Virus record (IMG/VR): IMGVR_UViG_3300025289_000028 | Location: 5,342 to 69,341 of that record | DNA from: a virus | Strand: one strand, 5' to 3' | Length of the DNA stretch: 64,000 bases | In this document: one piece after another, positions 5,321 to 61,610 of the stretch | Numbering within the stretch: position 1 is the stretch's first letter | Layout of the letters: the number at the start of each line of letters is the position of its first letter | The notes under the pieces: generated by a model | Told to the model about the DNA's origin: nothing | Databases searched by the model: none | Seen by the model: the letters and a program-made list of their open reading frames with translations, nothing else | Translations under genes and position numbers: made by a program

Positions 5321-5530
5321 ATGACAGACTACAGAAATTTATCAGACTGGGCAAAAGCCAAAGTAGATAAAACAATTGCCGAAGAAATTGAGCCCGGACC
5401 TCGCGAAAATAAACACAATGGTTTTAAATGGAATGAACCAGAATATACACTTAACAGAGTTCATAATGGTGATTATTGTTCAGAGTGCTGGATGATTTAC
5501 TATAACTGTTTATGCTCACATGATAACTAA
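5321..5530 (+). CDS. hypothetical protein (69 aa)
   Basis: ORF in packed array. Confidence 0.5.
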   Translation: MTDYRNLSDWAKAKVDKTIAEEIEPGPRENKHNGFKWNEPEYTLNRVHNGDYCSECWMIYYNCLCSHDN

Positions 5531-10606: not shown

Positions 10607-11022
10607 GCAGTAAAATGAAAAGAACCAAAAATAGCAAACCAAAGAAAAAATGGTCAAAGCAATGTGGAGATTTTTCATTTAAAAATGCCACACAAAATAA
10701 AGAAGGTTCTATATCTGTTGATGTGTTTTTTAAAGATGAATTTATTGGTGTTATGTCATGCACAAATAGGAAATTTACAGATAAATACGGTTTAGGAATT
10801 TATGATTTTTCAGAACAAAGACGTTCCGGAACTGCTATTGGTTTTGTAGAATGTTCGGGAATAATACATGGACTTCCAAAATCAATATTAAAAGTAGAAT
10901 TAAAAAGGAACTCTATTTTATCTTTAGAAAGAAAAGTTTTAATAGAAAAATTTAAATTAATTGAAGAAATTGATTGGATGGAAACATTTAGCTTTAATAA
11001 TCTTAGATTATTACTTCGATGA
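10603..11022 (+). CDS. hypothetical protein, paralog family B; ...ERKVLIEK motif
   Basis: ATGA overlap with the upstream gene. Confidence 0.55.
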   Translation: MSSKMKRTKNSKPKKKWSKQCGDFSFKNATQNKEGSISVDVFFKDEFIGVMSCTNRKFTDKYGLGIYDFSEQRRSGTAIGFVECSGIIHGLPKSILKVELKRNSILSLERKVLIEKFKLIEEIDWMETFSFNNLRLLLR

Positions 11023-11094
11023 ACAACAGTAGATTATACCAATATCCAGCACTATTCAATGAACAACAGTAGATTATACCGATATCCAGCACTA
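11019..11094 (+). repeat. Tandem direct duplication: two 36-bp copies with 1 mismatch and a 4-bp spacer, covering the start codon and first 12 codons of gene 11059
   Basis: atgaacaacagtagattatacc[a/g]atatccagcacta occurs at 11019-11054 and again at 11059-11094. Copy 1 encodes MNNSRLYQYPALFNEQQ*. Confidence 0.85.
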
Positions 11095-16423: not shown

Positions 16424-16573
16424 ATGAAAACAGATAAAAGAGTACAATTTCCACTAACATTATCTAGTGAACTTAGAAAGGAGTTTGATAATTTTTGTGA
16501 AGAAAGAGCTATTAATAAATCACAATTAATAGAATGGTTAATATTGCAATACATTGGAAAAAATGAAAAATAA
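16424..16573 (+). CDS. ribbon-helix-helix (CopG/Arc-like) small DNA-binding protein, 49 aa (not in ORF track)
   Basis: MKTDKRVQFPLTLSSELRKEFDNFCEERAINKSQLIEWLILQYIGKNEK*: the classic RHH pattern. Overlaps the annotated start of the GIY-YIG gene. Confidence 0.55.
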   Translation: MKTDKRVQFPLTLSSELRKEFDNFCEERAINKSQLIEWLILQYIGKNEK

Positions 16574-17648
16574 AGAAAGAAAACCAATGGGTTATTGGAC
16601 AAAAGAAAATTGTGAGAAAGAAGCATTAAAATACAGCTCAAGAAGCAATTTTGAAAGAGGTTCAAATGGAGCTTATGATAAATCTTTAAAAAACAATTGG
16701 TTAAATGATATTTGTAAACATATGATTACTAAAAAGAAACCAAACGGATATTGGACAAAAGAAAAATGTTTAGAAGAGGCATTAAAATATAGAACAAAAA
16801 CAGATTTTGCGAAAAAATCCAGTGGAGCATATGATTCTGTTTATAGAAATAAATGGGTTGAAGAATGTTGTTCACATATGGAAATTCTTGGAGATTTATA
16901 TAAAAGACTTATTTATGTAGCTGTTTTTGCAGATAATCATATTTATGTTGGTTTAACTGGAAATCCAAATAAAAGATTTGATGAACATTTAACTGATAAT
17001 AGATGCATTGTTTATAAACACATTAATAGAACAGAGTTAAAACCAAAATTTATAAAATTAACAGATTATTTGGATAACGAAAATGCCTCAATACAGGAAG
17101 GTGTTTTTAAAGAAAAATATGAAAAAGAAGGATATGTTATTTTAAATATAGCAAAAACTGGTTCCCTTGGAAGTGCTCCAAGAAAATGGACAAAAGAAAA
17201 ATGTACAGAAGAAGCTAAAAAATACGAATCTCGTTCTGAATTTAAAATAAAAAATAATTCTGCATATAGTGCCGTCATAAGAAATAACTGGGGAGATGAT
17301 TGTTGTAAACACATGGTTAGACGTAAAAAACCAAATGGCTATTGGAATATTAAAGAAAATTGTATAAATGTAGCTCTTCAATGTGAAAGCAGAACAGAAT
17401 TTATTCAAAAATATCCACGAGCACATGATTATGCTTGTAAAAATAAATGGCTTGAAGAAATTTGTTCTCATATGAAATTACTGAAAGAAATTTGGACTTT
17501 TGAAAAAATTTACAATATTGCAAAAAATCATAAAACTCTTTTTGAATTCAGGACAAAGAACAAAAGAGACTATGAAATTTTACGTTCTAATTTAGAATGG
17601 AAAGAAAAAATTTATACAGAATTTGGTTGGAAATCTCGTAAAAAATAA
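16554..17648 (+). CDS. GIY-YIG homing-endonuclease-like protein with four tandem ~45-aa repeats
   Basis: Central 'LIYVAVFADNHIYVGLTGNPNKRFDEH' is a GIY-YIG catalytic motif. Flanking repeats follow (K/R)PNGYWTKE.C.EEA.KY..R.EF....SAY...RN.W.D..C.HM (x4). The true start may be the internal Met near 16584. Confidence 0.7.
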   Translation: MEKMKNKERKPMGYWTKENCEKEALKYSSRSNFERGSNGAYDKSLKNNWLNDICKHMITKKKPNGYWTKEKCLEEALKYRTKTDFAKKSSGAYDSVYRNKWVEECCSHMEILGDLYKRLIYVAVFADNHIYVGLTGNPNKRFDEHLTDNRCIVYKHINRTELKPKFIKLTDYLDNENASIQEGVFKEKYEKEGYVILNIAKTGSLGSAPRKWTKEKCTEEAKKYESRSEFKIKNNSAYSAVIRNNWGDDCCKHMVRRKKPNGYWNIKENCINVALQCESRTEFIQKYPRAHDYACKNKWLEEICSHMKLLKEIWTFEKIYNIAKNHKTLFEFRTKNKRDYEILRSNLEWKEKIYTEFGWKSRKK

Positions 17649-30166: not shown

Positions 30167-31108
30167 ATGAAAAAGATACACATAAACAATGATGATAATT
30201 ATGCTACTCCACCAGAGTTTTACGAAGAGTTAAACAGTAGATTTAATTTTGATTTTGATCCATGTCCTTACAGTGAAAACGAAATTACAGTTGATGGATT
30301 AAAAATTGAATGGGGTAATTCAAACTTCATTAATCCTCCTTATAGTCAAAAATTAAAAGAGAAATTTATTAAAAAAGGAATCGAAGAAATGAAAAAAGGC
30401 AAAGTTTGTGTTTTCCTGCTCCCTGTTTCAACTTCAACGAAATTATTCCAAGAATACATTAAACCAAATGCAACCAAAATTGAATTTATAAAAGGAAGAA
30501 TTAAGTTCGGCAAAATAGATGAAACTGGAAAATTCTATTTACCATTAAATTCAAAAGGAAAAACACAAAGTGGGACAAAAGATAGTATGATAGTTGTTTT
30601 TGACGGACGTGTTCCGGCTGAGAACATTAAAGATTTAGTATTATCAGAATACAAAAATGGAAACATAGTAACAGCAACATTTGATGGTATTCAAGCAATG
30701 CCATTAAAAGAATTTGTTAAACAACCAGCCGGAGGCATGTTGTATGATTTAAATAGATGCGAGTCTGTTATATTAACATTCATAGAAGACCCAAAATGGG
30801 TTAACGATTATGCTGTTGCACAGGTTATTAGAGAATTAAAAAGACAAATTGATGAGTTAAAAAGTAATGTTTCATGCCGTTTTAGTGTTGGAGATACAGT
30901 GATTTCAATAAATGATGCATTTTCTGAAACAGAACACAATAAAGACGGAGCGAAGAATGTTGGTAAGGAAACTTATATAGTAAACAAAGTGGAATATTGG
31001 AAGCAAGGCGAAGGGTACTTGGTTTATGGAGAGAAGTCAGATAAAAGAAATTGCCAAGTATGGCACCATGAAAACGATTTAGAACTTGTTAGTAAAAAGA
31101 GTGATTAA
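30167..31108 (+). CDS. phage-type DNA N6-adenine methyltransferase (Dam family) with a ~150-aa C-terminal extension
   Basis: 'NYATPPEFYEELNSRFNFDFDPCP...DGLKIEWGNSNFINPPYS...GKVCVFLLPVSTSTKLFQEYI' matches the phage Dam family blocks (ATP..f...lD.a........L...W...vf.NPPYs....w..k......g..vv.Llp..tst.wf). Confidence 0.8.
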   Translation: MKKIHINNDDNYATPPEFYEELNSRFNFDFDPCPYSENEITVDGLKIEWGNSNFINPPYSQKLKEKFIKKGIEEMKKGKVCVFLLPVSTSTKLFQEYIKPNATKIEFIKGRIKFGKIDETGKFYLPLNSKGKTQSGTKDSMIVVFDGRVPAENIKDLVLSEYKNGNIVTATFDGIQAMPLKEFVKQPAGGMLYDLNRCESVILTFIEDPKWVNDYAVAQVIRELKRQIDELKSNVSCRFSVGDTVISINDAFSETEHNKDGAKNVGKETYIVNKVEYWKQGEGYLVYGEKSDKRNCQVWHHENDLELVSKKSD

Positions 31109-31313: not shown

Positions 31314-32738
31314 ATGCAACAAATAATTTTAATCTATGGTATTCCTTCAATAATATTGATTGCTATTTCTATTTATGTTTTCTCTCTACGAAGAATTGTT
31401 CCTACAAATGTAGTTCATATTGTTCAAAGGGGAAATAAAACAGTTTCATACGGAGTGGGAAAAGAATCTAATGTCTATTATGAATTTCCTGGATGGCTAC
31501 CAAAAATAGGTGTTATTAAGCGAGAATTGCCTGTATCAAATTTTGATATTGATTTATTAAAGTATTCTGCTTATGATAAAGACCGAGTACCTTTTGTGGT
31601 TGATGTTAAAGCGTTCTTTCATATAGCAGATACTAATAAAGCCGCAGAGAAAGTAGAATCATTTGATGAAATGAGAAAGCAATTAGAAAATGTTGTTCAA
31701 GGTGCTGTCCGTTCTATATTGGCAAAATCAAAATTGGAAGAAATAATGGAAGAGCGTTCTATTTTTGGAGATAAGTTTACTGAAAATGTAAAAACCGATT
31801 TGCAAAATTGGGGCGTTGAGCCAATAAAAAATATCGAGTTGATGGATGTGAGAGATGCTGATGGCTCAAATGTTATTCATCAGATAATGGCAAAAAGAAT
31901 TTCTGCAATTGATATGGAATCAAGAACAGAAGTTGCTAAAAATAGAAAGTTTGCTCAACAAGCGGAACTTGAAGCACAAAAAGAAATTGATATAACAAAA
32001 GCTGATACAGAAAAGATGTCCGGAGAGGCACAAGCTAAATCCAAACAAGCAATTGGTATAGCACAAGCAGAATCAGACAAACAATCAGGTATTGCTAATC
32101 AACAAGCAGTTTCAGAGATTGCAAAATCAGAAAGATTGACAGCCGAGCAACAGATGGAAGTTATTAAAGTAAATCAAATCAAACAAGCTGAAATCAATAA
32201 GGAGAATGCCATTATCTTAGCTGAACAAGATAAGAGAAAAATGGAAATTTCAGCAGAAGCCAATAAATTTAGAGTAGAAACTGATGCTTCTGCTCAACTG
32301 GAAGCCAAAAAGAAATTGGCAGAGGGTGAAAAAACTTTCGGTGAGGCTGAAGCTTTTGTTATTCAAGCTAAAGGTATTTCTATGGCAGAATCTAAGAAAG
32401 CAATGGAATTAGCAGGTGTAACAGCTCAAACAACACTGGCGAAAGAGATTGGTGAAAACAAACCTTATCAAGAATATTTGATAAAGATTAAAGAGGTTGA
32501 AGTTAGCCAAGTAATTGGTGTTACTCAATACGAATCAATAGCAACTGCTTTATCGAAAGCTGATTTAAAACTTTTAATCAATAGCGGTGATGTACATTCT
32601 GGTATAGGTAAATTGTCAGACTTATTTACCGCTAAAGGAGCTTCTCAACTAAATGGAATGATTGAGGGATTAAAGCAAACAGATGAAGGAAAAAGCATTC
32701 TGTCTATTTTAGACAAATTTAAACCTAAAGTAGGATAA
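31314..32738 (+). CDS. SPFH/band-7 (flotillin-like) membrane protein
   Basis: An N-terminal TM helix is followed by an SPFH domain and a long Ala/Glu/Gln-rich coiled-coil (AEQDKRKMEISAEANKFRVETDASAQLEAKKKLAEGEK). Confidence 0.7.
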   Translation: MQQIILIYGIPSIILIAISIYVFSLRRIVPTNVVHIVQRGNKTVSYGVGKESNVYYEFPGWLPKIGVIKRELPVSNFDIDLLKYSAYDKDRVPFVVDVKAFFHIADTNKAAEKVESFDEMRKQLENVVQGAVRSILAKSKLEEIMEERSIFGDKFTENVKTDLQNWGVEPIKNIELMDVRDADGSNVIHQIMAKRISAIDMESRTEVAKNRKFAQQAELEAQKEIDITKADTEKMSGEAQAKSKQAIGIAQAESDKQSGIANQQAVSEIAKSERLTAEQQMEVIKVNQIKQAEINKENAIILAEQDKRKMEISAEANKFRVETDASAQLEAKKKLAEGEKTFGEAEAFVIQAKGISMAESKKAMELAGVTAQTTLAKEIGENKPYQEYLIKIKEVEVSQVIGVTQYESIATALSKADLKLLINSGDVHSGIGKLSDLFTAKGASQLNGMIEGLKQTDEGKSILSILDKFKPKVG

Positions 32739-36906: not shown

Positions 36907-37181
36907 TGAAAAAAATTAATCACGATGAAATTTCAGTACTAAAACGTATAGTACTTATAGAAAAAAGTTATTATTTTAAAAAAGGTGATACCGTTAGAAT
37001 AAATACTAAAATTATAGAGCCTTATTATTATTGGCGTGAATTTAAAGAAAGTTTAGGGACTGTATTTTCCTGTGATAAAGAATGGAACGAAGTAACAATA
37101 TTATGGTTTACTACAAATGATAGAGTAGGATTACCGTCATTATGGGATTCTTTTAATTTAATTAGAGTTGATAAGGATTGA
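36906..37181 (+). CDS. hypothetical protein (91 aa); N-terminal ...LKRIVLIEK motif
   Basis: Last gene of the plus-strand array. Confidence 0.5.
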   Translation: MKKINHDEISVLKRIVLIEKSYYFKKGDTVRINTKIIEPYYYWREFKESLGTVFSCDKEWNEVTILWFTTNDRVGLPSLWDSFNLIRVDKD

Positions 37182-38285
37182 CTTTAAATAATCAGTCAAT
37201 ATAGTCTCAATGTTCTTAAAGTCCCAGTAAGGAATTCTTAATAATGGAATGTTATTGTTTTTGCAGTATTCGTTTTTTATTTGGTCGTTTAGTTGCCTTG
37301 CTTTAAATGTTTTTTCACCACCAAAGTATTTAAAAGCTTTAAAATGTTGAGCTCCATCAAATTCTACACAAGTATTATAATCTGGTAAATAAAAATCGAA
37401 AGGTAATTTAAAAACATTTTTACAATCATCAAAAGTTTTTTGATATGTAAATATTATATTTTTTTCTTCTAAAATTTTAGTAATTTTAATTTCTCCTTTT
37501 GAAAAATTTGAACACTTTGGACAACCATTTCCAAATAAATGCATTGCTGGCCTTTGTTTGAAAATACCATGTTTATTACAAATTATATCTACTTTTGTTT
37601 GGTTATTTACATATTTTACATTATCATAATTATAAGTATTTCCATGAACTTCAAAAGATTTTGCCAAAAATATTTCTTTAGTTCCAACATATCCACCACT
37701 ACATATGTCACATCCGCGTCCTCTTAAATGGTCTTTGGCTAATTGACTGAACTTTCCATGTTTATTACAAATTATTGTTACTTTATTATCATTTTTTGTG
37801 TATAAAACTTCAGAATAATCGTATTTATTATTATGTTTTTCATTAGATTTTTTTATAAAATCTTCTTTTGCATATTGATACGTTCCTGAACAATAAATAC
37901 AACCCCTTCCACTTAAATGACTATCAGGTCTTTGATTAAATTCTCCATGCTCTGGACAAATTATAATAATTGGTTGTTTATTATTTTTATATACCACTTT
38001 TGAATAATCGTATTTATTATCATGAACTTCATTTGATTTAATAATAAATGATTCTAAAGTATGTTTACTTGGTAATGTTCTTTCTCCTTCGTACATACAT
38101 TTCTTACAATTATATCCTTTCATGTGATTTCTTGGAGATTGTAAAAATTCGCCATGTTTCTCACATATAATTGTGGATTTTACTGAGGAATTAACATATT
38201 CAAATTTTGAATAATCGTACCTTTCTCCATGAATTTGTTTTGCATTAAAAATAAATTTTTCAATACTTATAGCTTTCCCACTCAT
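37158..38285 (-). CDS. Homing-endonuclease-like protein with 5 tandem Zn-ribbon modules and a C-terminal Vsr-like PD-(D/E)xK nuclease domain
   Basis: Repeats follow YDYSK(V/F)EY.N...K..IIC..HG.F.Q.P..H..G.GC..C. C-terminal 'LPFDFYLPDYNTCVEFDGAQHF' resembles the Vsr 'FVDGCFWH' core. Paralog of 52833..53987. Confidence 0.65.
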   Translation of the reverse strand: MSGKAISIEKFIFNAKQIHGERYDYSKFEYVNSSVKSTIICEKHGEFLQSPRNHMKGYNCKKCMYEGERTLPSKHTLESFIIKSNEVHDNKYDYSKVVYKNNKQPIIIICPEHGEFNQRPDSHLSGRGCIYCSGTYQYAKEDFIKKSNEKHNNKYDYSEVLYTKNDNKVTIICNKHGKFSQLAKDHLRGRGCDICSGGYVGTKEIFLAKSFEVHGNTYNYDNVKYVNNQTKVDIICNKHGIFKQRPAMHLFGNGCPKCSNFSKGEIKITKILEEKNIIFTYQKTFDDCKNVFKLPFDFYLPDYNTCVEFDGAQHFKAFKYFGGEKTFKARQLNDQIKNEYCKNNNIPLLRIPYWDFKNIETILTDYLKSILINSN

Positions 38286-41416: not shown

Positions 41417-41569
41417 ATGAATGAGAATATTATTTTAACTTATCTTATTGCTTCTTATTTAGGAAGTGTTTTTTGTTGCAGAATAATAGAAATTAAAACA
41501 GAATCATATATTTTTTGGAAATGGATTCCTGTTATAATATTAATTGCAATATTTTTTAACAAAAAATAA
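41417..41569 (+). CDS. small membrane protein (50 aa, 2 TM)
   Basis: In-frame ATG 41417 (MNENIIL); sits immediately upstream of the CRISPR array. Confidence 0.4.
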   Translation: MNENIILTYLIASYLGSVFCCRIIEIKTESYIFWKWIPVIILIAIFFNKK

Positions 41570-41603
41570 CATACAAACGTCTTTTACAGGAAATGTTATA
41601 ATA

Positions 41604-41839
41604 GTTTTATAACCGTTAGATTTTAGACCATCTTCAAGGTATAATTTGGTTTGTTTCGCCATTGCTCCATGTTTTATAACCGTTAGATTTTAGACCATCT
41701 TCAAGGAAGTTGGCAGTGGTATATTTCCCTGGTATTGTTTTATAACCGTTAGATTTTAGACCATCTTCAAGGCTGGTAACCAAACTCTTCGGCAACAATG
41801 GAAGTTTTATAACCGTTAGATTTTAGACCATCTTCAAGG
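41604..41839. CRISPR. CRISPR mini-array: 4 identical 36-bp repeats (GTTTTATAACCGTTAGATTTTAGACCATCTTCAAGG) and 3 unique spacers of 31, 30 and 31 bp. No cas genes in the window
   Basis: Repeats at 41604-41639, 41671-41706, 41737-41772 and 41804-41839. The spacers are tataatttggtttgtttcgccattgctccat, aagttggcagtggtatatttccctggtatt and ctggtaaccaaactcttcggcaacaatggaa. Confidence 0.9.
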
Positions 41840-42213
41840 GTAATCTGTGTAAATGATTGAATCTCAGAGTATTCAAGTAGGTACAAGCTCTCAAAAACTG
41901 ACCAAAAGTTGGTATATTTTATATAAAACGTCTTGTTTTTTTCATATTTTTCCATTAAAATCTCATTATTTCCATTGATATTTTTAATGTAAAATATGTA
42001 ATCTTTGTACTCTGAGTTTGTATATAATTCACACCCATCAATTTTCGAAATAAAAAATTCTTTCATTTCTGTTTCCTTGGCTTTTTGAGAAATGTATTTC
42101 TCAAACAACACTTTTCTCGTCAAAAATGAACACAAGTCCACCTTTATCCCAAGGTTTGTCCATGGTGTATCCTTAACTTTTTCTTGCTTTTCTTTCAAAA
42201 TAGCATTTGACAT
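41767..42213 (-). CDS. hypothetical protein (148 aa); ...LTRKVLFEK motif. The last ~24 codons are encoded by CRISPR repeat 4 and spacer 3
   Basis: Minus-strand ORF in an operon with 42216..42845 and 42876..43787. The 3' end reads into the array, so the true C-terminus is uncertain. Confidence 0.5.
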   Translation of the reverse strand: MSNAILKEKQEKVKDTPWTNLGIKVDLCSFLTRKVLFEKYISQKAKETEMKEFFISKIDGCELYTNSEYKDYIFYIKNINGNNEILMEKYEKNKTFYIKYTNFWSVFESLYLLEYSEIQSFTQITLEDGLKSNGYKTSIVAEEFGYQP

Positions 42214-46100: not shown

Positions 46101-48158
46101 TTAAGCAAATAATCCAAAAAATCCTTTTTTATTTTTTTGATGTGACTTTGAATACTTAGGAACATACTCTTTTCCTTCTGATTTTGCTTTTTCCATCTCA
46201 ATATTTTCCTTTTTTTCTCTTTCTTTTCTTATTTTCATGACTTCTTCGTCACTTAAATAATCATGCATTCTGGTTATGCTTCCGGCAGAAGGTGTTAAAT
46301 CACTGTTTCTGGAAGAAGATTGTATTTTGTTAATTTGTATAAACTCCAGTACTCCTTCAATTAACTCTCTTGAGGCTCTTGAGTTACGATAACCTTTTAA
46401 CTGATCAAATTCAAGGCCTCCATTTTTACGATATAAACCCAAAGTTGCTCTTTCATTTGAAATTATATGTTGTACATGGACAGCCATATAATCTCTATTA
46501 ACAATTCGATCAAGGTATGTATAAATACAATGATTCATAAGCATACCTTCTTTATTTAAGTCCTCAAGAGTTGGAATAACTGTCAATTCAACATCGCCAA
46601 CAATTGTATTTATGTTTGACAATTCCTTAGCTGCTTTTTTATAAAATTCTGCTTTTTTAGCATCTTTAATAGCTCCATATCTCGCTGCAAGGTCATCATG
46701 TATAGTTTTTAACTCGACATTACTTTTAATACGATAAATATAATTATCAGAAAGCTCCAACAGCCTCATTGAGTTAATAGTATCTGTATACAAATGCAAA
46801 TAATCAGAATTGCCACCTTTTACAACATCATCTATATTTCTATCTAAGATGTGTTTAATGTTTTTGATTGTAAAACTGGCATTATCTTGAATTCTTTGTT
46901 TTTCTAAATTTCTGTAGAATTTATAAATACGCTCAGTATCATAACTTTGAAACAAAGTTTCAATATCAGTTTTGGAAATATATTTTTTACGATATATACT
47001 AAGCAAAATTTCCATATCCTGTGGAGTGCTTATGTGTTTATAAATCAAAGGACTAACCTTTAAATAGTTAGGACTATCTTCTATGGTTTTTGATATTTTA
47101 ACGACTTTTTTAGCAACTTCCTTAGTATCATTATCTCCACTTCCTTTTAACATACCGTTAATATCGCAATTCATAGAAATTTCCAATATTTTAGTAGGAG
47201 ATGTTGCTTCAAACAATTCATAAACTTGAGAAGATAAAATGTTTTTACTGTGGATAAATTCTTTAAAAAACACTTGTCCTTTAGTAAGTAATATTGTTGA
47301 AATACTCTGGAAGTCAGATACACAAAGAAAAATTTTAGACAATTCAACATATCTGGATAAATACCCACCTATATTTAATTTTTTCTCTTCTTTTTTTCCG
47401 TCTCCAAAACCGCTATCAACTTTATTATAAGTTATTGACTCTCCGGTTATTTCATCTGTTTTTTCAAAAACATCATGATTATTATAAGCATAACTTATTT
47501 GAGGAATCAATTTCTTAATATCGTCAAGGTCAGTTACTACAACATCAATTTTGTTAAAAAAATTGAATATATTTATAAGACCACCATAAGAAGCAAAATC
47601 ATAAAATTGGAAAAAATGTTCTAATCTTCCTATTTTTGAAAGACCTACTTCTTCCGTAATGTTATTCACATCATTCTGCTTATTATTTACTGATATTTTA
47701 TCAAGTAATGGCTTTTCTAAGAAAATTTCAGTTTTGTTTTTGCTTCTATCAAATTTAATTGAATCGGTTCTGACAATATTATCATTTAATTTATCAGTAG
47801 AAGAATCGTATCTAACAAATGTTTTTTGTCTTAAAAGAGTTATTGTTTTTCCTTTTTCTTCTACTAAAAATGAAACTTTATAAATTTCATCTTCATCTGG
47901 AATAATAAGAAATAAACGATTTTTACTGTCATAAACGCTTCCGCACTTATCACATTTAATTGTTTCAATACTATGCTTGTCTTCAACAGTAGTGTCGTGT
48001 TTTTTTACAAGCAATCTTCTCGCTTTACTTTTTAGCTCTTTTTTATTACCGCAATGGCAGTACATTCTTTGACTGTCTTTTCCTTCTGAGCTTATTTTAT
48101 TTGTATCGACCATAGTTTTGCCGATATCTACCAAAAATGAATGTTGTTTCATTACCAT
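46101..48158 (-). CDS. large hypothetical protein (685 aa) with an N-terminal Zn-ribbon (CHCG...CDKCG). The C-terminal domain is shared with 15190..16176 (possibly PcfJ-like)
   Basis: Long minus-strand ORF. Confidence 0.65.
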   Translation of the reverse strand: MVMKQHSFLVDIGKTMVDTNKISSEGKDSQRMYCHCGNKKELKSKARRLLVKKHDTTVEDKHSIETIKCDKCGSVYDSKNRLFLIIPDEDEIYKVSFLVEEKGKTITLLRQKTFVRYDSSTDKLNDNIVRTDSIKFDRSKNKTEIFLEKPLLDKISVNNKQNDVNNITEEVGLSKIGRLEHFFQFYDFASYGGLINIFNFFNKIDVVVTDLDDIKKLIPQISYAYNNHDVFEKTDEITGESITYNKVDSGFGDGKKEEKKLNIGGYLSRYVELSKIFLCVSDFQSISTILLTKGQVFFKEFIHSKNILSSQVYELFEATSPTKILEISMNCDINGMLKGSGDNDTKEVAKKVVKISKTIEDSPNYLKVSPLIYKHISTPQDMEILLSIYRKKYISKTDIETLFQSYDTERIYKFYRNLEKQRIQDNASFTIKNIKHILDRNIDDVVKGGNSDYLHLYTDTINSMRLLELSDNYIYRIKSNVELKTIHDDLAARYGAIKDAKKAEFYKKAAKELSNINTIVGDVELTVIPTLEDLNKEGMLMNHCIYTYLDRIVNRDYMAVHVQHIISNERATLGLYRKNGGLEFDQLKGYRNSRASRELIEGVLEFIQINKIQSSSRNSDLTPSAGSITRMHDYLSDEEVMKIRKEREKKENIEMEKAKSEGKEYVPKYSKSHQKNKKGFFGLFA

Positions 48159-48281: not shown

Positions 48282-50690
48282 ATGACCTTATTAAACGAAA
48301 ATCTTCTTCATGAGTTGCAAAGAATGTCAAAATTAGCTGGAGTTTCACAAAACACCATTAATGAAAGCGATTCTACCATTATAAACTCAAAAAAAACAGA
48401 GCCAAAAAAACTTTTAAAAGAAGATGATGATGATATTTTTGGAGATATTGGAGATTTAATGGGTGATGAAGGAAGAGCTTTAGAAATAAAAGGGAAATCC
48501 GAAGGAGTACTGACGAAAGACATGAAAGCATCCATGGTATTGAATAATATAAATCAATATGAAGCTGCGAATTTAAAACTTTCAGGAGAATACAAACCAA
48601 AAACACTTGGTGCAAGGCCAGAAGAAGAAGGTGGTGTAGAAGGAACTGTTATCGAAAAGAAGCCTATACAAAAACTACCAGGAGCTTCAAGAGAATATGG
48701 AAGATTAGTAACTCCAATTATTAGTCCAGCTGAAATTAGTCGTCTTAAAAAAGCTGGAATGAGCCAAGAAGAAATTGATGCAATTATAGAAAAAGATAAA
48801 AAAACAAAAAGAAGCGCCGTTACATTTGGACAAGAAGGTGGTAATGTACAATCAGCAAAATGGCAACCAAAAATAAAAGATAAAAACATAATTAGCTATC
48901 ATACATTTGAAGAAAATGGCAAAAAATTAGTTGGGATTTCAGATTTAGGAAAACAACAACTTGAATTTTTACAAAGAATGTTATCAGGTAGGCCATTACC
49001 AGCAAATGGTGATGAAAATATTGATATAGAAGAGATTTTATTAGGTAACTGGCCATATAAAAATTTAGTAATAGCTAATGCTGAACATATTATTAGAGAT
49101 TTTTATGGAAAAGCTGTAATACCAATACTTGCACAAACACTTAAAAGGAAAAAAAATCCAAAGGATAGTCAATTCATTGTATTTGCAGAAAATGGTATAA
49201 ACCATGCTATAGACCAAACAAAAGAAAAACAATATTCTCAGGAAAAATATAATAATTATGGAGCTTGGTTTATTCAAGTTGTTAAACATAAAGTAATTGA
49301 CCAATTAAGAAGCATAAGTGACTACGTATTGGATAGAACAGAGGTTGAACGAAGACTTGTTGCAGAAACTGCTCCTCTTGTTGTTGATTCTAAATTAAAT
49401 CCTGAAAAAGCTATTGAAGGAAATTATGAAGTTACAATTAGTCCATTCACATTTAAAGTTAAAACTAAAGATGGTGAAATAGTAAAAAAACCCTTTTTCA
49501 GATATACATTTAAGGATGCAATGGATGCTATAGGGCTTTTTGGAGCAAAAGAAGAAGATGGAAAAATTTCTCCTCTAAGTGCTAGATTTCTGAAAAATCC
49601 AAATGAATTTTATAAAAGCGTTTCAAAGGACAAGCCGGAGGATTTAACTAAAGCAATATACGAACCAGGAGAAGGCTCCATAGCTGAAAAAGCCATGTAT
49701 GAAGGAGTTCCTGTTAGCGAAGCAATGCGTTTAGCAAAAACTGAAATTGATAACATTCTTGATGAAATTTCTATTGAAATGTTAAGTACTGATTTAAAAA
49801 TTGGAGAGAAAGTTAGATTAGAAAGGGTTAATGAATTATTAGACCCGGAGAAAACAAAAAGTCCAGAAATATTTCAAAATCTTAATTCGAAAAAAGAATA
49901 CACAGTAACAAAAAAAGAAGCAACAGGCAAAAACGATAAAAACGGGAATACGGTTTATATATACACTATACTTGATGATGCTGGAAAAGAAATAAATCTT
50001 TCTAATAGATATGTTAAATCAACTTCAAAAACATCGGCACTACCACAAGAATTAGGTACGAAATACAAAGATGCTTTAATCGAAGCACTAAGACTTATGT
50101 TGCAATATGGTAGAATGGTTCCAAAATACACAAGAACAGTTTATTTTAGAAATGTAGATGGTACACCAAAAATAGTAAACGCTTATAATCCTTATACTCA
50201 CAAAGGTGGAAAAGTAGAAAAAGAAAATGGGAAAATTGCTCTCCCATACAAGGATAGTGGACTTATAAATAAGTATCAAAAAATAAGAGAGGTACCGTTT
50301 AGTTATGTATGGGATACAGGTGGGAAATTAGTTGGAAATACAGAAAAAATTATTGATCAACTTTCTAAAGTTGCTTTTGCAAAAAATATAGAATTGCCTC
50401 AAAATTTATTTAATCCAGAAACAAAACAAGCTCTATATAAAACAGCAGAGTCTGCAGAAGAAAAAAAATCATTAACAGACAAAACATTAGAATTTATAAA
50501 TTCTTTAAGATTGGGATTAAGAAAGTTTTTCGGATTTGAAGGGTTAGAGAATCCAGCAATAAAGAAAGATAGAGATTTATTAAATGATTTACTTAAAAAT
50601 TATGAAATGTCATCACAATTATCAGAAAATCATATAAGAAAAGTTGTAAGAGAGCTTATGGTAGAAAGATTTAAAAAAACAAATAAATAA
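48282..50690 (+). CDS. large hypothetical protein (802 aa) with an acidic N-terminal region (DDDDIFGDIGDLMGDEG)
   Basis: Long ORF. Its C-terminal ~80-aa module is shared with the next gene. Confidence 0.65.
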   Translation: MTLLNENLLHELQRMSKLAGVSQNTINESDSTIINSKKTEPKKLLKEDDDDIFGDIGDLMGDEGRALEIKGKSEGVLTKDMKASMVLNNINQYEAANLKLSGEYKPKTLGARPEEEGGVEGTVIEKKPIQKLPGASREYGRLVTPIISPAEISRLKKAGMSQEEIDAIIEKDKKTKRSAVTFGQEGGNVQSAKWQPKIKDKNIISYHTFEENGKKLVGISDLGKQQLEFLQRMLSGRPLPANGDENIDIEEILLGNWPYKNLVIANAEHIIRDFYGKAVIPILAQTLKRKKNPKDSQFIVFAENGINHAIDQTKEKQYSQEKYNNYGAWFIQVVKHKVIDQLRSISDYVLDRTEVERRLVAETAPLVVDSKLNPEKAIEGNYEVTISPFTFKVKTKDGEIVKKPFFRYTFKDAMDAIGLFGAKEEDGKISPLSARFLKNPNEFYKSVSKDKPEDLTKAIYEPGEGSIAEKAMYEGVPVSEAMRLAKTEIDNILDEISIEMLSTDLKIGEKVRLERVNELLDPEKTKSPEIFQNLNSKKEYTVTKKEATGKNDKNGNTVYIYTILDDAGKEINLSNRYVKSTSKTSALPQELGTKYKDALIEALRLMLQYGRMVPKYTRTVYFRNVDGTPKIVNAYNPYTHKGGKVEKENGKIALPYKDSGLINKYQKIREVPFSYVWDTGGKLVGNTEKIIDQLSKVAFAKNIELPQNLFNPETKQALYKTAESAEEKKSLTDKTLEFINSLRLGLRKFFGFEGLENPAIKKDRDLLNDLLKNYEMSSQLSENHIRKVVRELMVERFKKTNK

Positions 50691-50691
50691 A

Positions 50692-52389
50692 ATGGAAAAC
50701 AAAAAATTAACATTTGAAAGTTTAAAAAAGTTCATCATAAGTAGAACTTTTAAAATCTTGAAAGAAGAAGAAATTGCTAATGATGAAGAATTTGATGACA
50801 GTTCTGAATTAGACAGCAAAGAAGACGTTGGCCAAGTAGATACGATGAACCCAGAAGAGTCTAATTTGGATTTGGATTTCTCTAATATAAGTGCAAAAAT
50901 TAATGAATTATCAAAAAATTTTAGTGAAGATGAATTAGTTGATTTATATGAATTAATAGAAAAAGCAAAAACAACTGGAAGACTTGGAAATAATTTCAAT
51001 TATAACAAAATGTCTGAAGGACATAAGATTAAACAGTTTAATTTCATTACAACAGTATTAGCTTCATTATATAAAGATGATAGCACTCTTGAAAATGAAA
51101 AGAAAAATATTAGAGATGTATTATTTATAGCAATGGTTCAACCAGATGAATTTACTTCTTTTGAAAAAGGTAGTGGAGGAAATAGACCTTCATTAATTTC
51201 AAGAATTGTTGCTAAAAATGCTGGTATTTATAATTTTGTTGAAAAAACCGGCAGAAAGACAATTGATGGTGAGAATTTACGAGCAATAGTTTCAAGTGCT
51301 ATTGAAGATGCTTTTGATTATTCTTTAGAAAACTTTAATCCAAGTAGAGGAGGACAACTTCCTTCTAATATAATATTTAATGCTACTTCAAGAGCGAAAT
51401 CACAAGTTCAATCTAAGTATGCAAAAACAGCATTAGGTCAATCAAGTGGAGGATTAAAAGGAAGCTCATTAGATGAGCCACTTGGAGATTCAGATGAAGA
51501 TGTTGACCAAACAAAAAGTGATAGAATCACTGGAGAAGAAGGACAAAAAAGCACTTCTCAAAAAGAAGCTGCAAAAGAATTATCAGATGTAATGCAAAAT
51601 TTTATTATAAGTCGTTTACAATCAAATATAAAACACGGTGGTATAAATCCTTCATTTTTAGAAGTAGCAAAATTATTATTTCAAGGACATATTTTATCTG
51701 AAATATCTGATATTTTAGGAAAACCAGCCGGAACAGTGAGACAAATAAAAAAAAGAATGGAAGAAGTTATAACATTTTACGTTCAAAATGGCTCTTTTCA
51801 AAAATACATTAAAGACAAAACAGGAATAAAAGTAAATTTCACCAATAATAAATACGCTTTTTCAGTACAAGGAGTTGGAGAAGAAGGAGAAAAAGAAAAT
51901 CCTTTAGAATATTTTAAGCAAACAGGAATTGACATAGCAACAGGAGATCCAAAAGGGGAATGGGTTCCATTAGAAACAGAGAAAGAAGAAGGAGTTGATT
52001 CGGATACATTAGGAGATATTGCATTTCCAAAAAGAATACAAGTTGGAGAAAAAGTTAAAATATCCAATCTTCCTGTACTCATGAAAATAAATCCAGAAGA
52101 ATATAAAAATCTTTCAAGCAAAAAAGAATATACAATACAAAGAATAGAGCCGAAAGAATTTTTTGAACCTCAAGGATTAGATAATTTTATTATAATTGAT
52201 AATGCCGGCAAAGAAGTATCAATACCTTCTGATAAATATCTTTTCAAAGTAGAACCAGAAGAAAAAGAAGAAGAACCTGAAAATATAGAAGATTTAGGTC
52301 CGGATGACCAATCACTTACTGAATCTTTTATTGTAAATGAAATAATGAAACGTGTTAACATACGAATATTAAAAGAATTAAAAAAATGA
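50692..52389 (+). CDS. large hypothetical protein (565 aa) with a sigma-70 region-4-like HTH
   Basis: 'FLEVAKLLFQGHILSEISDILGKPAGTVRQIKKRMEEV' resembles sigma-70 region 4. A C-terminal module 'VGEKVKIS...SSKKEYTIQRIEP...FIIIDNAGKEVSIPSDKY' is paralogous to 'IGEKVRLE...NSKKEYTVTKKEA...YIYTILDDAGKEINLSNRY' in the 802-aa protein. Confidence 0.6.
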   Translation: MENKKLTFESLKKFIISRTFKILKEEEIANDEEFDDSSELDSKEDVGQVDTMNPEESNLDLDFSNISAKINELSKNFSEDELVDLYELIEKAKTTGRLGNNFNYNKMSEGHKIKQFNFITTVLASLYKDDSTLENEKKNIRDVLFIAMVQPDEFTSFEKGSGGNRPSLISRIVAKNAGIYNFVEKTGRKTIDGENLRAIVSSAIEDAFDYSLENFNPSRGGQLPSNIIFNATSRAKSQVQSKYAKTALGQSSGGLKGSSLDEPLGDSDEDVDQTKSDRITGEEGQKSTSQKEAAKELSDVMQNFIISRLQSNIKHGGINPSFLEVAKLLFQGHILSEISDILGKPAGTVRQIKKRMEEVITFYVQNGSFQKYIKDKTGIKVNFTNNKYAFSVQGVGEEGEKENPLEYFKQTGIDIATGDPKGEWVPLETEKEEGVDSDTLGDIAFPKRIQVGEKVKISNLPVLMKINPEEYKNLSSKKEYTIQRIEPKEFFEPQGLDNFIIIDNAGKEVSIPSDKYLFKVEPEEKEEEPENIEDLGPDDQSLTESFIVNEIMKRVNIRILKELKK

Positions 52390-52832: not shown

Positions 52833-53987
52833 TTACTCAATACAGTTGAATTCTTTCTCTAAAATTTCATTTATATTTTTCAAATTTAAATATGAAATTC
52901 TAATAAGTTTTATATTGTTATTTAAACAATATTTATTTTTTATGTTATCAGTTCTTTGTATATCCAAAAAATTTTTTTCTCCTCCAAATTTTTTGACTGA
53001 TTCAAAATGCTGTCTCCCATCAAATTCTATACAAGTATTGTATTTTGGTAAATAAAAATCAAATGGTAATTTATTTGATATTCCTATGCAATCATTAAAT
53101 TTATGTTGATGTATAAATTCGATGTTATTCTTTTTTAAAAATTCAATTATACCTTTTTCTCCCTTTGATATTTTTGAAAAATTACATTTTTTACATCCAT
53201 ATCCATTCAAATGTGAGCTTGGAGTTATTTGAAAATCTCCATGTAATGGACAAATTACTATTACCTTAGTTTTGTTTTGAACGTAGTTAACTTTTGAATA
53301 ATCGTATTTTGGTTCACATGTTTTTTCATTTATGTGTATAATTTTCGATTTTTCAATAAAATATTCAGAAGTATTAGCTCTTTTTAAGGAACTTTCTTCA
53401 AATCCGCAAAAAGGACATTGGTGTCCAGCTAAATGTTTATCTGGTGATTGCTCAAAAACACCATGTTTCTTACAAATTATCTTAACTTTAATTATAGAAT
53501 TAACATATTCAACTAACTCATAATTATATGTATATCCATAAATAATTATAGATTTTTCAATAAACTCTATCGTGTTTCTTAATGCGGTTCCGCCACACTT
53601 ACCACATCCATGCCCACCCAAATGACTTGCTGGAATTTGTTCAAAAACTCCATGATTATTACATATTATTTTAACTTTTGTATTATTGTTAAAATATTCT
53701 ACTAATGAATAATCATATATATTACTATGAACTTTGTTAGACTTTTCAATAAATTCTTCGGTTGTTAATTTTTTGAGTCCAGAACATTCAACACATCCAC
53801 AACCAGATAAATGATCATTTGGCGTTTGCTCAAAAACACCATGTTCTTTACAAATTATTTTAATCTTAGTTTTGCTATTTTTATATTCAACTAAACTGTA
53901 ATCATATTTTGATTCATTAGTTATTCTGTTTACATGTATAATTTTAGCTCTTTCAATAAACTCTTCTGTTGTTAATTTTTTTGACAT
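52833..53987 (-). CDS. Homing-endonuclease-like protein with tandem Zn-ribbon modules and a C-terminal Vsr-like PD-(D/E)xK domain (paralog of 37158..38285)
   Basis: Same repeat architecture. C-terminal 'LPFDFYLPKYNTCIEFDGRQHF...FGGEKNF...YCLNNNIKLIRI'. Confidence 0.65.
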   Translation of the reverse strand: MSKKLTTEEFIERAKIIHVNRITNESKYDYSLVEYKNSKTKIKIICKEHGVFEQTPNDHLSGCGCVECSGLKKLTTEEFIEKSNKVHSNIYDYSLVEYFNNNTKVKIICNNHGVFEQIPASHLGGHGCGKCGGTALRNTIEFIEKSIIIYGYTYNYELVEYVNSIIKVKIICKKHGVFEQSPDKHLAGHQCPFCGFEESSLKRANTSEYFIEKSKIIHINEKTCEPKYDYSKVNYVQNKTKVIVICPLHGDFQITPSSHLNGYGCKKCNFSKISKGEKGIIEFLKKNNIEFIHQHKFNDCIGISNKLPFDFYLPKYNTCIEFDGRQHFESVKKFGGEKNFLDIQRTDNIKNKYCLNNNIKLIRISYLNLKNINEILEKEFNCIE

Positions 53988-58524: not shown

Positions 58525-59428
58525 AAGACATTAATGCTATTTTTTGTTCACCGCTTACTTTGGTAATTGATAAGTAATTACAAATCGTCAAAAATATTTT
58601 CACAACACTATCATCAAATCTTTTTTCATCAACCATAGTAACAAAATCCTTATAAGAAGGAAGTTCTTCACCATTTTGAGCCGTTCCTTCCTTATAGAGA
58701 ACTTTTAATAATTCAGAGTAATTTATCCAATCTTTTTCAAGTTTTTCTTTTTTGGTTTTAACATATTCATTAAAACCATCTTCTTGTGTGTTTTCTATTG
58801 GTTTTATTGGTTCTGAAGGCTCTTTTATTGATTTTACAGGTATCTCTTCTGTTTTAATGAATTTTACCGGTTCTTCGATTGGTTTTACAGGTTCCTCTTC
58901 TGTTTTAATAGATTTTGCTGGTTCTTCGATTTTGTTTTCTAATTTTTCTTCCTTATTTGAACTTGTAATATATTTCATAAGCAAATCAAGAAAACACAAA
59001 GATATAATCGGCAATATAGCTCCGGACAATATTGCAATTATCCTTTTCACAAATATTATATCACTTGCATCATATACGCTAAACCCAAACAATTCAGTAA
59101 AATTCTTAATTAAATTAGAATCAGTAATCATTTTTGTTGTAGTGGTATCGTAGGAATAATAAGTATTCCCCATCATTTGAAACGTTGTTAAAAGGATAAA
59201 AATAGCCCAAACTGTACCTTTATTTATTTTATCCATGGCAACTATCCCAGCCAATGAGGAAAGTGCCCCAAGCTCAAAAACAACAGCAAGAACTATGGAA
59301 ATTGCTTTGTAATTACTAAGCTCAAAAAAACTAACAACATGGAGTGCACTTACCAAACTAACACTAAATGGTACAATCATGAAAGCGATTACTATCCACC
59401 ATGAAGCTTTTTGTTTATTATCTGACAT
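58472..59428 (-). CDS. membrane protein with Pro/Glu/Lys-rich tandem repeats (EEPVKPIEEPVKFIKTEEIPVKSIKEPSEPIKPIE)
   Basis: N-terminal TM helices. The repeats correspond to the DNA tandem repeat at ~58795-58935. Confidence 0.55.
   Translation of the reverse strand: MSDNKQKASWWIVIAFMIVPFSVSLVSALHVVSFFELSNYKAISIVLAVVFELGALSSLAGIVAMDKINKGTVWAIFILLTTFQMMGNTYYSYDTTTTKMITDSNLIKNFTELFGFSVYDASDIIFVKRIIAILSGAILPIISLCFLDLLMKYITSSNKEEKLENKIEEPAKSIKTEEEPVKPIEEPVKFIKTEEIPVKSIKEPSEPIKPIENTQEDGFNEYVKTKKEKLEKDWINYSELLKVLYKEGTAQNGEELPSYKDFVTMVDEKRFDDSVVKIFLTICNYLSITKVSGEQKIALMSYEDAKTKLEGYLAFGNI
58795..58935. repeat. Coding tandem repeat, ~48-51-bp units x ~2.5
   Basis: gattttacaggtatctcttctgttttaatgaattttaccggttcttc / gattggttttacaggttcctcttctgttttaatagattttgctggttcttc. 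Confidence 0.6.
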
Positions 59429-60467: not shown

Positions 60468-61610
60468 TTAATGCAATTCATCATATTCTCTAATGCGAGA
60501 ATAAACACCTTTTAAATGTTGTGTTTTTTCACTATCCGGCTCAGCTGATTTAACATTCTTAAGTTCTGTAATAGATTTCCTTTCTTCTTCTGTTAATGTC
60601 TTTGGAACAAAAATATTTACATAAACCATTTGATCGCCTCTTTGAGAAGGATTATTTATATTAGGAATTCCTTTACCTTTTAAACGTAGGATTTTGCCAG
60701 ACTCTGTTCCTGGCTCTATTTTGACTTTAACGTTTCCATCAACAGTATTTATTTCTAAAGAATCATTCCCAATCACAGCATCATAATAACTAATAAAAAC
60801 ATCAGTTAAAATATTATTGCCTTCTCTTTTAAAAATAGGATGTTCAATCTCTGTTATTTCAATAATAAGACTTCCGTTATTCCCTCCGCCTCTTGCTTCG
60901 TTTCCAACGTTATTAATGTTTAAATTTATTCCTTCTACTGCACCGGCTGGAATATCAAATTCTACTTCATCACTATTCGAAATCATCCCTTGTCCTTTAC
61001 AGGAATTGCATTTTTCTTTAATTTCTTTTCCTTCTCCACCACAATGCTGACAAGTGTATTGTTGAATCATCATTCCCATTTGCGTATTCTGTCTTATTGT
61101 AACAATACCAGTACCATCACATACACTGCATTTTACTATCGATTCTTTATTTTTAGCACCAGTTCCAGAACAGTCTGGACAATTTATTTCTCTTTGTAAT
61201 TTTACTTTTTTATGTGCACCTGTAATTAATTCATGAATAGTTAATGAAATTCTTATTTTTAAATCTCCACCTCTTCTAGTTTTTGTTTGTTGAGCATGTC
61301 TACTACTACCACCTCTAAACCCAAATGATTCAGCATGCCTTCTAAATAATTCATCCGCCATACTGTGAGGATTAAATCCAAAACCACCATCATTAAACAT
61401 GCCATCGTTTTCATATTTAGCTTTCTTTTCTGGGTTGGATAAAATATCATATGCGTTAGAAATTTTTTTAAAAGTATTTTCATCCCCACCCTTATCTGGG
61501 TGATGTTTTTTTACTAATTTTCTATAAGATTGTTTTATTTCTTCTTGAGATGCTGTTTTGTCTACTTCAAGAATATTATAGAGACTTTCTTTTTCAGACA
61601 TATTTTCCAA
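60468..61610 (-). CDS. dnaJ: molecular chaperone DnaJ (type I Hsp40)
   Basis: J-domain with the 'HHPDKGGD' HPD motif, a Gly/Phe region, four CxxCxGxG zinc-finger repeats and a C-terminal domain. Confidence 0.9.
   Translation of the reverse strand: MENMSEKESLYNILEVDKTASQEEIKQSYRKLVKKHHPDKGGDENTFKKISNAYDILSNPEKKAKYENDGMFNDGGFGFNPHSMADELFRRHAESFGFRGGSSRHAQQTKTRRGGDLKIRISLTIHELITGAHKKVKLQREINCPDCSGTGAKNKESIVKCSVCDGTGIVTIRQNTQMGMMIQQYTCQHCGGEGKEIKEKCNSCKGQGMISNSDEVEFDIPAGAVEGINLNINNVGNEARGGGNNGSLIIEITEIEHPIFKREGNNILTDVFISYYDAVIGNDSLEINTVDGNVKVKIEPGTESGKILRLKGKGIPNINNPSQRGDQMVYVNIFVPKTLTEEERKSITELKNVKSAEPDSEKTQHLKGVYSRIREYDELH

Follow-up and report, generated by a model that had tools for sequence, protein, structure and literature searches.

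A CRISPR mini-array joined to the 3' end of a phage gene, one of several dispersed arrays in a 503-kb megaphage genome

The window analysed here is a stretch of 64,000 nucleotides (nt) of viral DNA (IMG/VR record IMGVR_UViG_3300025289_000028, positions 5,342 to 69,341), and at 41604-41839 it contains a short CRISPR array. The repeat, GTTTTATAACCGTTAGATTTTAGACCATCTTCAAGG, is 36 nt long and occurs on the plus strand in four exact copies with a period of 66-67 nt, at 41604-41639, 41671-41706, 41737-41772 and 41804-41839 (repeats 1 to 4). This is the form of a CRISPR array, which consists of three or more direct repeats, nearly identical, 23-55 bp long and regularly spaced. Further copies within 3 mismatches are absent from the 64 kb, and 100 shuffled sequences gave 0 matches (0 expected by chance). 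Spacer 1 (41640-41670, 31 nt, 35% G+C), spacer 2 (41707-41736, 30 nt, 40%) and spacer 3 (41773-41803, 31 nt, 45%) are uniform in length and show no similarity to one another or to the rest of the window. Their G+C content is above that of the surroundings (29-31%; window average about 29%). A preliminary description, made from the letters alone, had already reported the identical repeats, the unique spacers of 30-31 nt, their raised G+C content, and an overlap of the array with the 3' end of a convergent minus-strand gene; all its descriptive statements were correct. No RNA structure is predicted for the repeat, whichever strand is taken (z-scores -0.1 and +0.3). One nucleotide upstream of repeat 1 lies an extended -10-like motif, TGtTATAAT (41594-41602, plus strand), which, as read from the sequence, might be the promoter of a plus-strand precursor of the CRISPR RNAs (crRNAs). 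Because this motif is not conserved in sister arrays, the orientation of the array stays an inference. Two short minus-strand open reading frames (ORFs), 41540-41662 (40 amino acids, aa) and 41634-41798 (54 aa), consist only of translated repeats and spacers and are artefacts that the array causes in annotation; the 40-aa ORF has been called as a gene in a public record (L007, 10552-10674).

The gene that meets the array, here called ORF148 (41767-42213, minus strand), shares 73 nt with it and encodes a conserved protein of 124 aa plus an array-encoded tail of 24 aa. No stop codon precedes the array. At the junction the gene reads ...CAAGG and then GTAATCTGTG; the frame passes through repeat 4, which adjoins the coding sequence and is translated as LEDGLKSNGYKT, and through spacer 3, and ends at the edge of repeat 3, which contains the stop (TGA on the minus strand at 41767-41769). 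Database searches gave 17 homologs of ORF148; two are truncated fragments, and all 15 that reach the 3' end of the gene continue into a CRISPR repeat. After the conserved end ...IQSFTQI(T) the translated repeat follows directly, as LEDGLKSNGYKT, LEELLKLQGYKT, LLDSLNSKGYKT or LEDLLNSKGYKT, and in some homologs two or three repeats are read through. Of the six frames, only that of ORF148 stays open across all six repeat variants; the ratio of nonsynonymous to synonymous polymorphism is 0.68 on very few sites, so that constraint on the repeat at the protein level is tentative at best. ORF148 has no Pfam or PADLOC match, no convincing NCBIfam match and no recognisable fold match, and tblastn against phages returned nothing.

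The window derives from the RIF_PHAGE_CU_29_17 megaphage. The exact ORF148 protein is encoded on contig CACVIJ010000001.1 of assembly GCA_902731165.1 / ERS4026448 (503,412 bp), the stretches compared are 99.98-100% identical, and the window occupies approximately positions 364,985-428,984 of the 503-kb record. The sole indel in the overlap, at window 46180-46186, comprises 7 nt versus 26 nt in the record; it falls in a PcfJ-like ORF (46101-48158, minus strand), whose called protein of 685 aa thereby becomes one of 673 aa. According to Table S1 of Al-Shayeb et al. (2020, Nature 578:425, PMC7162821), this phage comes from Rifle sediment, its genome was manually curated, and it has a CRISPR-Cas system of type V with Cas1, Cas2 and, as the only interference gene listed, cas14K; the same source gives a gene-taxonomy profile led by Bacteroidetes. 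The arrays of huge phages are described there as compact, with a median of six repeats, and solo arrays without neighbouring cas genes are also reported. Phage-borne compact arrays, and the CRISPR-Cas system of this very phage, are thus already in the published record. The same array with the same three spacers is present in contigs from nine samples. A more distant relative of 519 kb (L001) retains the flanking genes and has neither ORF148 nor an array at this site. Megablast of the 8 kb around the array against INPHARED gave no match, nor did a search of IMG/VR for related loci that used the neighbouring ATPase.

Four paralogs of ORF148 are located elsewhere in the 503-kb genome, three of them among the database homologs and one seen only in locus L031. 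Four more mini-arrays of 4-5 repeats each lie near 90, 94, 117 and 136 kb; their repeats are of different variants (A', B, C' and C), and every one of them ends exactly at the coding sequence of a paralog. The genome therefore holds at least five such gene-plus-array modules, and the array in the window is one of at least five, probably six, dispersed mini-arrays. The ratio of nonsynonymous to synonymous substitution rates (dN/dS) among the paralogs is 0.17-0.43, which indicates purifying selection and hence that they are real genes.

Relatives of the repeat were sought by a two-copy search with its first 12 nt and then with a degenerate 27-position pattern, and were recovered only in phage-like contigs. 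The exact repeat had 0 matches in IMG/VR, GTDB genomes and JGI metagenomes, and a two-copy pattern of the 3' half had 0 matches in IMG/VR. In the related locus L003, a type B array (repeat GTTTTATACCCTTTAGAATTTAAACTGTCTAAAAG) begins 16 nt after cas2; upstream, on one strand, are cas1, an ISL3-family transposase and a 405-aa protein with RuvC and zinc-ribbon domains. Three further phage contigs (L021, L023 and L024), with Cas1 proteins 63-66% identical to that of L003, each end inside a repeat of the same family 0-80 nt after cas2 (GTTTTATACCCTTCTGATTTT..., GTTTTATAACCTTCTAATTTT... and GTTTTATACCCTTTTGAATTT...). All four loci thus share the order cas1-cas2 followed within 0-80 nt by repeats of the form GTTTTATA(A/C)CC.... 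Cas1 of L003 scores 289 bits on the NCBIfam model TIGR03639 for type II Cas1 (cutoff 120), and the relatives' Cas1 and Cas2 match the PADLOC profiles Cas1_II (E = 4e-104) and Cas2_II (E = 2e-31); adaptation proteins of type II are accordingly found, in the relatives only. A pattern derived from the phage Cas1 alignment yielded 251 matches in IMG/VR, none of them a true relative.

These loci bear on whether the element is CRISPR at all. A coding tandem repeat at the C-terminus of ORF148, iterons of a replication origin or the RNA array of a type III toxin-antitoxin system could be imagined here, as the ORF148 frame enters the repeats and genes for a topoisomerase, a single-stranded DNA-binding protein (SSB) and a DnaB/RecA-like ATPase are found near the array; moreover, the repeats of ToxI are likewise 36 nt long. 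However, the units measure 67, 66 and 67 nt, which are not all multiples of three and break the reading frame, so that a coding tandem repeat does not fit. ToxI-like repeats are contiguous, lack spacers and stand upstream of the toxin gene, whereas here the repeats are separated by 30-31 nt that are unique and differ between strains, and the array is situated at the 3' end of its neighbour. The genes cas1 and cas2 adjoin the same repeat family, which contradicts a non-CRISPR origin and leaves it a negligible probability. The array at 41604-41839 is a genuine CRISPR array, as the preliminary description had proposed for this phage-like locus: its repeat family follows cas1-cas2 in relatives, the spacers differ, and a variant lacks only spacer 3. 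Every sequence-level feature of such an array is present save a demonstrated target.

Comparison of related genomes also reveals a polarity. The type A array has a repeat 1 nt different from that in the window and four other spacers; the window array and the array L031A, whose repeats differ by 1 nt, have no spacer in common, and the type B arrays of L003 and L031 (L031B) have the same repeat and no common spacers. Degenerate repeats, where present, are at the ORF148-distal end, which in L003 is the cas2-proximal end; the distal repeat of L031A carries four changes relative to its neighbours. Repeat 1 of the window, still an exact copy, corresponds to this oldest end in the relatives. In the population, a 119-kb contig (P0272) carries a variant that retains spacers 1 and 2, and the ORF148-proximal spacer 3 is missing. 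Other short contigs have a single repeat at the array site, which may be assembly collapse. Because the degenerate repeats are distal and P0272 lacks the ORF148-proximal spacer, new units seem, from these sequence comparisons, to be added next to ORF148, and spacer 3 is probably the newest. In type II-C arrays, acquisition takes place at the last repeat and the first, "extra" repeat is free to mutate (PMC12080349), and the same arrangement is found here. By this analogy the array would be read on the plus strand, the direction that cas1 and cas2 have in L003.

Taken together, these data support, with a probability of roughly three in four, the view that the array belongs to the phage's own, already catalogued CRISPR-Cas system, as one of at least five dispersed mini-arrays. 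Cas1 and Cas2 encoded elsewhere in the genome would insert new spacers at the ORF148-proximal repeat, that is repeat 4, and the 3' end of ORF148 would serve as the integration flank ("leader") beside the growing end. Such insertion would match type II-C, since the last repeat would be the acceptor and the first would be free to decay. The array would be transcribed on the plus strand, and its crRNAs would work in trans with an effector whose gene is elsewhere. Cas14k, the candidate published for this effector, might bind or silence its target rather than cut it. The term "orphan" used in the preliminary description therefore holds for the window and fails for the genome. Within the 64 kb, Cas1, Cas2 and Cas14k of the relatives had no tblastn match, in agreement with the reported absence of cas genes, and Pfam searches with 20 window ORFs, including nine of the ten longest, recovered only ordinary phage functions and nothing related to CRISPR. 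PADLOC found no match for six window ORFs searched singly, among them the three longest without other assignment, and over all 113 window ORFs the matches listed, from the top 25 families, were all methyltransferases. A check of the rest of the genome, which the preliminary description had advised, does find a cas gene. A Cas14K1 gene (403 aa) lies at approximately 359,344-360,555 of the 503-kb record, at a distance of 46 kb from the array and 4.4 kb beyond the left edge of the window, and Table S1 (PMC7162821) credits the genome with Cas1 and Cas2.

Cas14K1, so named in the sequence file that accompanies PMC7162821, is 88% identical to the RuvC and zinc-ribbon protein of L003. The latter is "Cas14K8", in GenBank "Cas14u.4" (QBM02815.1), which is likewise recorded on a 503,412-bp contig; QBM02820.1, five accessions further on, matches the first 82 residues of the 141-aa ORF148 homolog of L003, which fits the L003 gene order. 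A sixth array locus of the genome would be of the L003 kind, with cas14k8, ISL3, cas1, cas2, the array and ORF141. Type V-F systems with Cas14 (Cas12f) were reportedly described by Harrington and colleagues in 2018. The arrangement in L003 resembles them in that a RuvC and zinc-ribbon protein of 400-405 aa is encoded upstream of cas1, cas2 and the array, and the protein matches the (uncurated) Cas12f profile of PADLOC with E = 1e-107. Unlike in type V-F, however, the partner Cas1 is type II-like, no cas4 is found between cas14k and the array in L003, and the nearest Cas14k copy in the genome of the window is 46 kb from the array. A miniature RuvC effector next to an array is true of L003, with the transposase in between. 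The ISL3 transposase (L003, 9089-9928) is inserted between cas14k8 and cas1, and the cas operon of L003 may therefore be disrupted. In the RuvC-II motif, Cas14k has IIIGDN where Cas12f has IQMEDL (alignment with 8j12_A); glutamate is replaced by glycine and the Asp-Glu-Asp triad is not intact. Owing to this replacement, Cas14k would be expected to bind or silence rather than to cut. In agreement with this, the main text of Al-Shayeb et al. (PMC7162821) describes the Cas14 as being without a catalytic residue and names it "dCas14".

Several observations weigh against assigning the array to a self-contained phage system with Cas14k as effector. For the 503-kb genome, cas1 and cas2 rest on Table S1 (PMC7162821) and on entry P0252, recorded on a 503,412-bp contig, rather than on located genes. 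Against the curated NCBIfam models, Cas14k passes TnpB (154.5 bits, cutoff 100) and falls far below Cas12f2 (52.6 bits, cutoff 450), another departure from type V-F. Furthermore, the nucleotide homology between the two Cas14k loci comprises the gene and 49 nt, and stops after a hairpin, CCAACGAATTTATTCGTTGG and then AGTATGTCAG, so that Cas14k comes with a 3' flank of its own. This flank looks like an omega-RNA and the end of an insertion sequence, and Cas14k, as judged from sequence, looks like a self-contained TnpB with its own omega-RNA. None of the three other relatives with cas1, cas2 and an array (L021, L023 and L024) has Cas14k within 10 kb upstream of cas1. The repeat variants are most conserved in their 5' 14 nt, as would suit a crRNA of type II better than one of type V. 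A trans-activating CRISPR RNA (tracrRNA), or anti-repeat, does not rise above background in the window or in L003 (RNAduplex; z about -5 in each case), and in both the best duplexes with the repeat fall within coding sequence. Finally, no target was found for the spacers. The 18 unique spacers of six arrays (15 from the five of the 503-kb genome and three from that of L003) have no protospacer in about 380 kb of related loci; 12 spacers gave no match in INPHARED and 11 none in PLSDB, spacer 1 of the window being without a match in all three; and the cores of window spacers 2 (23 nt) and 3 (24 nt) gave none in IMG/VR. The competing elements that the spacers were expected to identify were thus not found in these collections.

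Other features of the Cas14k loci and of the candidate RNAs may be recorded here. In L016 (9846-11263, approximately 359.3-360.7 kb of the record), an overlapping 52-aa ORF precedes Cas14k1 and the conserved 49-nt flank follows it; in L003, a similar hairpin is also found about 270 nt upstream of cas14k8. The 3' flank has neither likeness nor complementarity to any repeat variant, and a link of Cas14k to the arrays through a shared RNA motif was accordingly dismissed. Two anti-repeat candidates in the window, 941-995 and 48616-48670, were rejected as chance because they are inside ORFs and have equal scores. Rfam gave no match at gathering or permissive thresholds.

For the effector, Cas14k is the tentative choice, at somewhat less than even odds; a host Cas9 is unlikely, and the remaining probability falls to another effector or none. 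The two types differ in what the crRNA retains: in type II it keeps the 5' part of the repeat, in type V it discards that part. A crRNA made up of a spacer and then about 20 nt of GUUUUAUAACC... would thus be of type II, and one with a 3' tag of the repeat followed by the spacer would be of type V.

The conservation of the 5' part of the repeat also fits a different proposal, in which the arrays are type II-like guide sets for the Cas9 and tracrRNA of a Bacteroidota host and the phage supplies the adaptation module and the arrays only; this widens the idea of the preliminary description to the entire genome. Curated models assign Cas1 and Cas2 to type II, cellular Cas1 proteins closest to that of the phage (46-53% identity) are in cas9-cas1-cas2 loci of Bacteroidota, and three of the phage relatives have cas1, cas2 and an array with no effector nearby. 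The arrays of this family also resemble those of type II-C systems as found in Neisseria, Campylobacter and Bacteroidota in the 36-nt unstructured repeat starting with GTTTTA, in the 30-nt spacers, in the position after cas2, and in the mutated first repeat and acquisition at the far end. However, the repeat occurs in 0 of 185,579 bacterial and archaeal species genomes, whether searched for exactly or with the pattern of 27 fixed positions, which would miss a repeat that shares only the 5' half. The nearest Bacteroidota loci carry unrelated 47-nt repeats, and no anti-repeat resembling a tracrRNA was found in the window or L003. The integration flank, moreover, is protein-coding here, unlike in type II-C. 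Cas9 itself was not found in the window, where no ORF exceeds 802 aa, Pfam gave no Cas9 domain for nine of the ten largest ORFs and the tenth, of 801 aa, is a topoisomerase; some 360 kb of the genome lie outside the sequence examined. We therefore regard guidance of a host Cas9 as improbable. The 802-aa ORF (48282-50690, plus strand, 6.4 kb from the array) was considered as a hidden effector and discarded, having no match in Pfam, PADLOC, PHROGs or NCBIfam; the ORF that follows (50692-52389, plus strand, 565 aa) has a weak match to sigma-70 region 4.

The lack of spacer targets would also be explained if the array in the window were an inert relic that was copied together with an ORF148 paralog from a cas-linked locus and neither acquires spacers nor is used. 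The absence of cas genes within 46 kb and the presence of the same three spacers in nine samples are consistent with this. On the other hand, the four repeats are still identical while the distal repeats of sister arrays have decayed, five such arrays are maintained in one genome, and strain variants with two spacers and with none exist, which argues that the array is dynamic. A relic is thus rather improbable. The G+C content of the 18 spacers (mean 39%, versus 29% for the phage) suggests that their targets are outside the phage's own lineage. It is also compatible with a match to a host gene that has been reported: according to the supplement of PMC7162821, one spacer of RIF_PHAGE_CU_29_17, which one not being stated there, has its match in a tRNA synthetase of the host that is of class II and probably the glycyl enzyme.

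The preliminary description had suggested that the array borrows the Cas machinery of the host, for which no positive pointer was found; Cas1, Cas2 and Cas14k of the phage itself are listed in PMC7162821, and the repeat, absent from the cellular genomes searched, does not identify a host CRISPR-Cas type. Virus-borne mini-arrays carry the repeat of their host and usually target related viruses. Solitary repeat units and mini-arrays that use host Cas proteins are said to have been described in 2019 by Faure et al. and by Medvedeva et al. The element in the window is like them in being short, viral and without a neighbouring cas gene, and unlike them in that it matches no host repeat, belongs to a phage with its own cas1-cas2 and has no viral target found. 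Phage-borne short arrays without nearby cas genes are also the known setting of RNA decoys (RNA anti-CRISPRs), in which repeats that mimic those of the host sequester its Cas proteins and the spacers do not matter. Such a role is very improbable here, given that no host repeat is alike among the 185,579 species genomes, that the repeat family goes with cas1-cas2 of the phage itself and that spacer turnover is polarised. A similar idea is raised in the supplement of Al-Shayeb et al. (PMC7162821).

With compact phage arrays and the system of this phage published since 2020, the array itself adds little. What the available text of PMC7162821 does not mention is the fusion to ORF148 paralogs, the at least five dispersed modules, the type II-like adaptation genes and the growth at the cas-distal end. 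Five or six arrays each welded to a copy of one gene bear on the origin of arrays, their spread within a genome and the need for leaders; the module may have been duplicated at least five times in one genome, the repeats diverging along with the gene copies. A speculative extension, which we consider doubtful, is that the unit of the system is the gene-plus-array module, with the ORF148 family as integration flank and each new spacer rewriting its C-terminal tail, and that the system is at the same time a hybrid of type II-derived adaptation and a TnpB-like effector without the RuvC-II glutamate. If the link between ORF148 and the array were functional, ORF148 would be a novel gene associated with CRISPR and would stand for a novel way in which satellite arrays, served in trans by one cas1-cas2 pair, are seeded; it might act as a leader-binding or integration factor, as a protein that handles crRNA, or as a gene coupled to the array in its expression. 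The combination of type II-like adaptation with a TnpB-like candidate effector that lacks a catalytic residue and seemingly has its own guide RNA is a mismatch. Identification of the protein that uses the crRNAs would be a test of whether an adaptation module of one type can be joined in nature with an interference module of another.

Some peculiarities of the sister arrays concern the history of the modules. In the type B array of the 503-kb genome (L031, 10375-10607; L004, 320-552) the same 30-nt spacer, CAACCTTATGTATTCCATCCACATTTATCC, occurs twice running, and in the IMG/VR version of this contig (L002) it is present once before the contig end. The array at L029 10375-10608 is a hybrid of three type C repeats followed, at the far end, by a decayed type A-like repeat, which suggests that the repeat type was replaced during growth or that modules recombined. 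Short contigs with chimeric ORF148 proteins (P0241, P0273 and P0274) point in the same direction and could be assembly chimeras.

The topoisomerase of the window is identical to GenBank QBM02719.1, labelled "uncultured archaeon" there. Among the replication genes are three homing-endonuclease-like genes (16554-17648, 37158-38285 and 52833-53987), one of the GIY-YIG type and two with DUF4379/DUF723 zinc fingers, and the DNA polymerase III alpha gene of L002 is interrupted by an intein or endonuclease. Tandem duplications of exact period inside ORFs, at 11015-11094 (two copies of 40 bp, 95% identity) and 58827-58931 (two copies of 51 bp, 87%), are unrelated to the array. Two window ORFs match methyltransferase families in PADLOC. 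Genes for a DnaJ of full length, a protein of the SPFH/Band 7 kind and a Dam-type methyltransferase are also present, at 60468-61610 (minus strand), 31314-32738 (plus strand) and 30167-31108 (plus strand).

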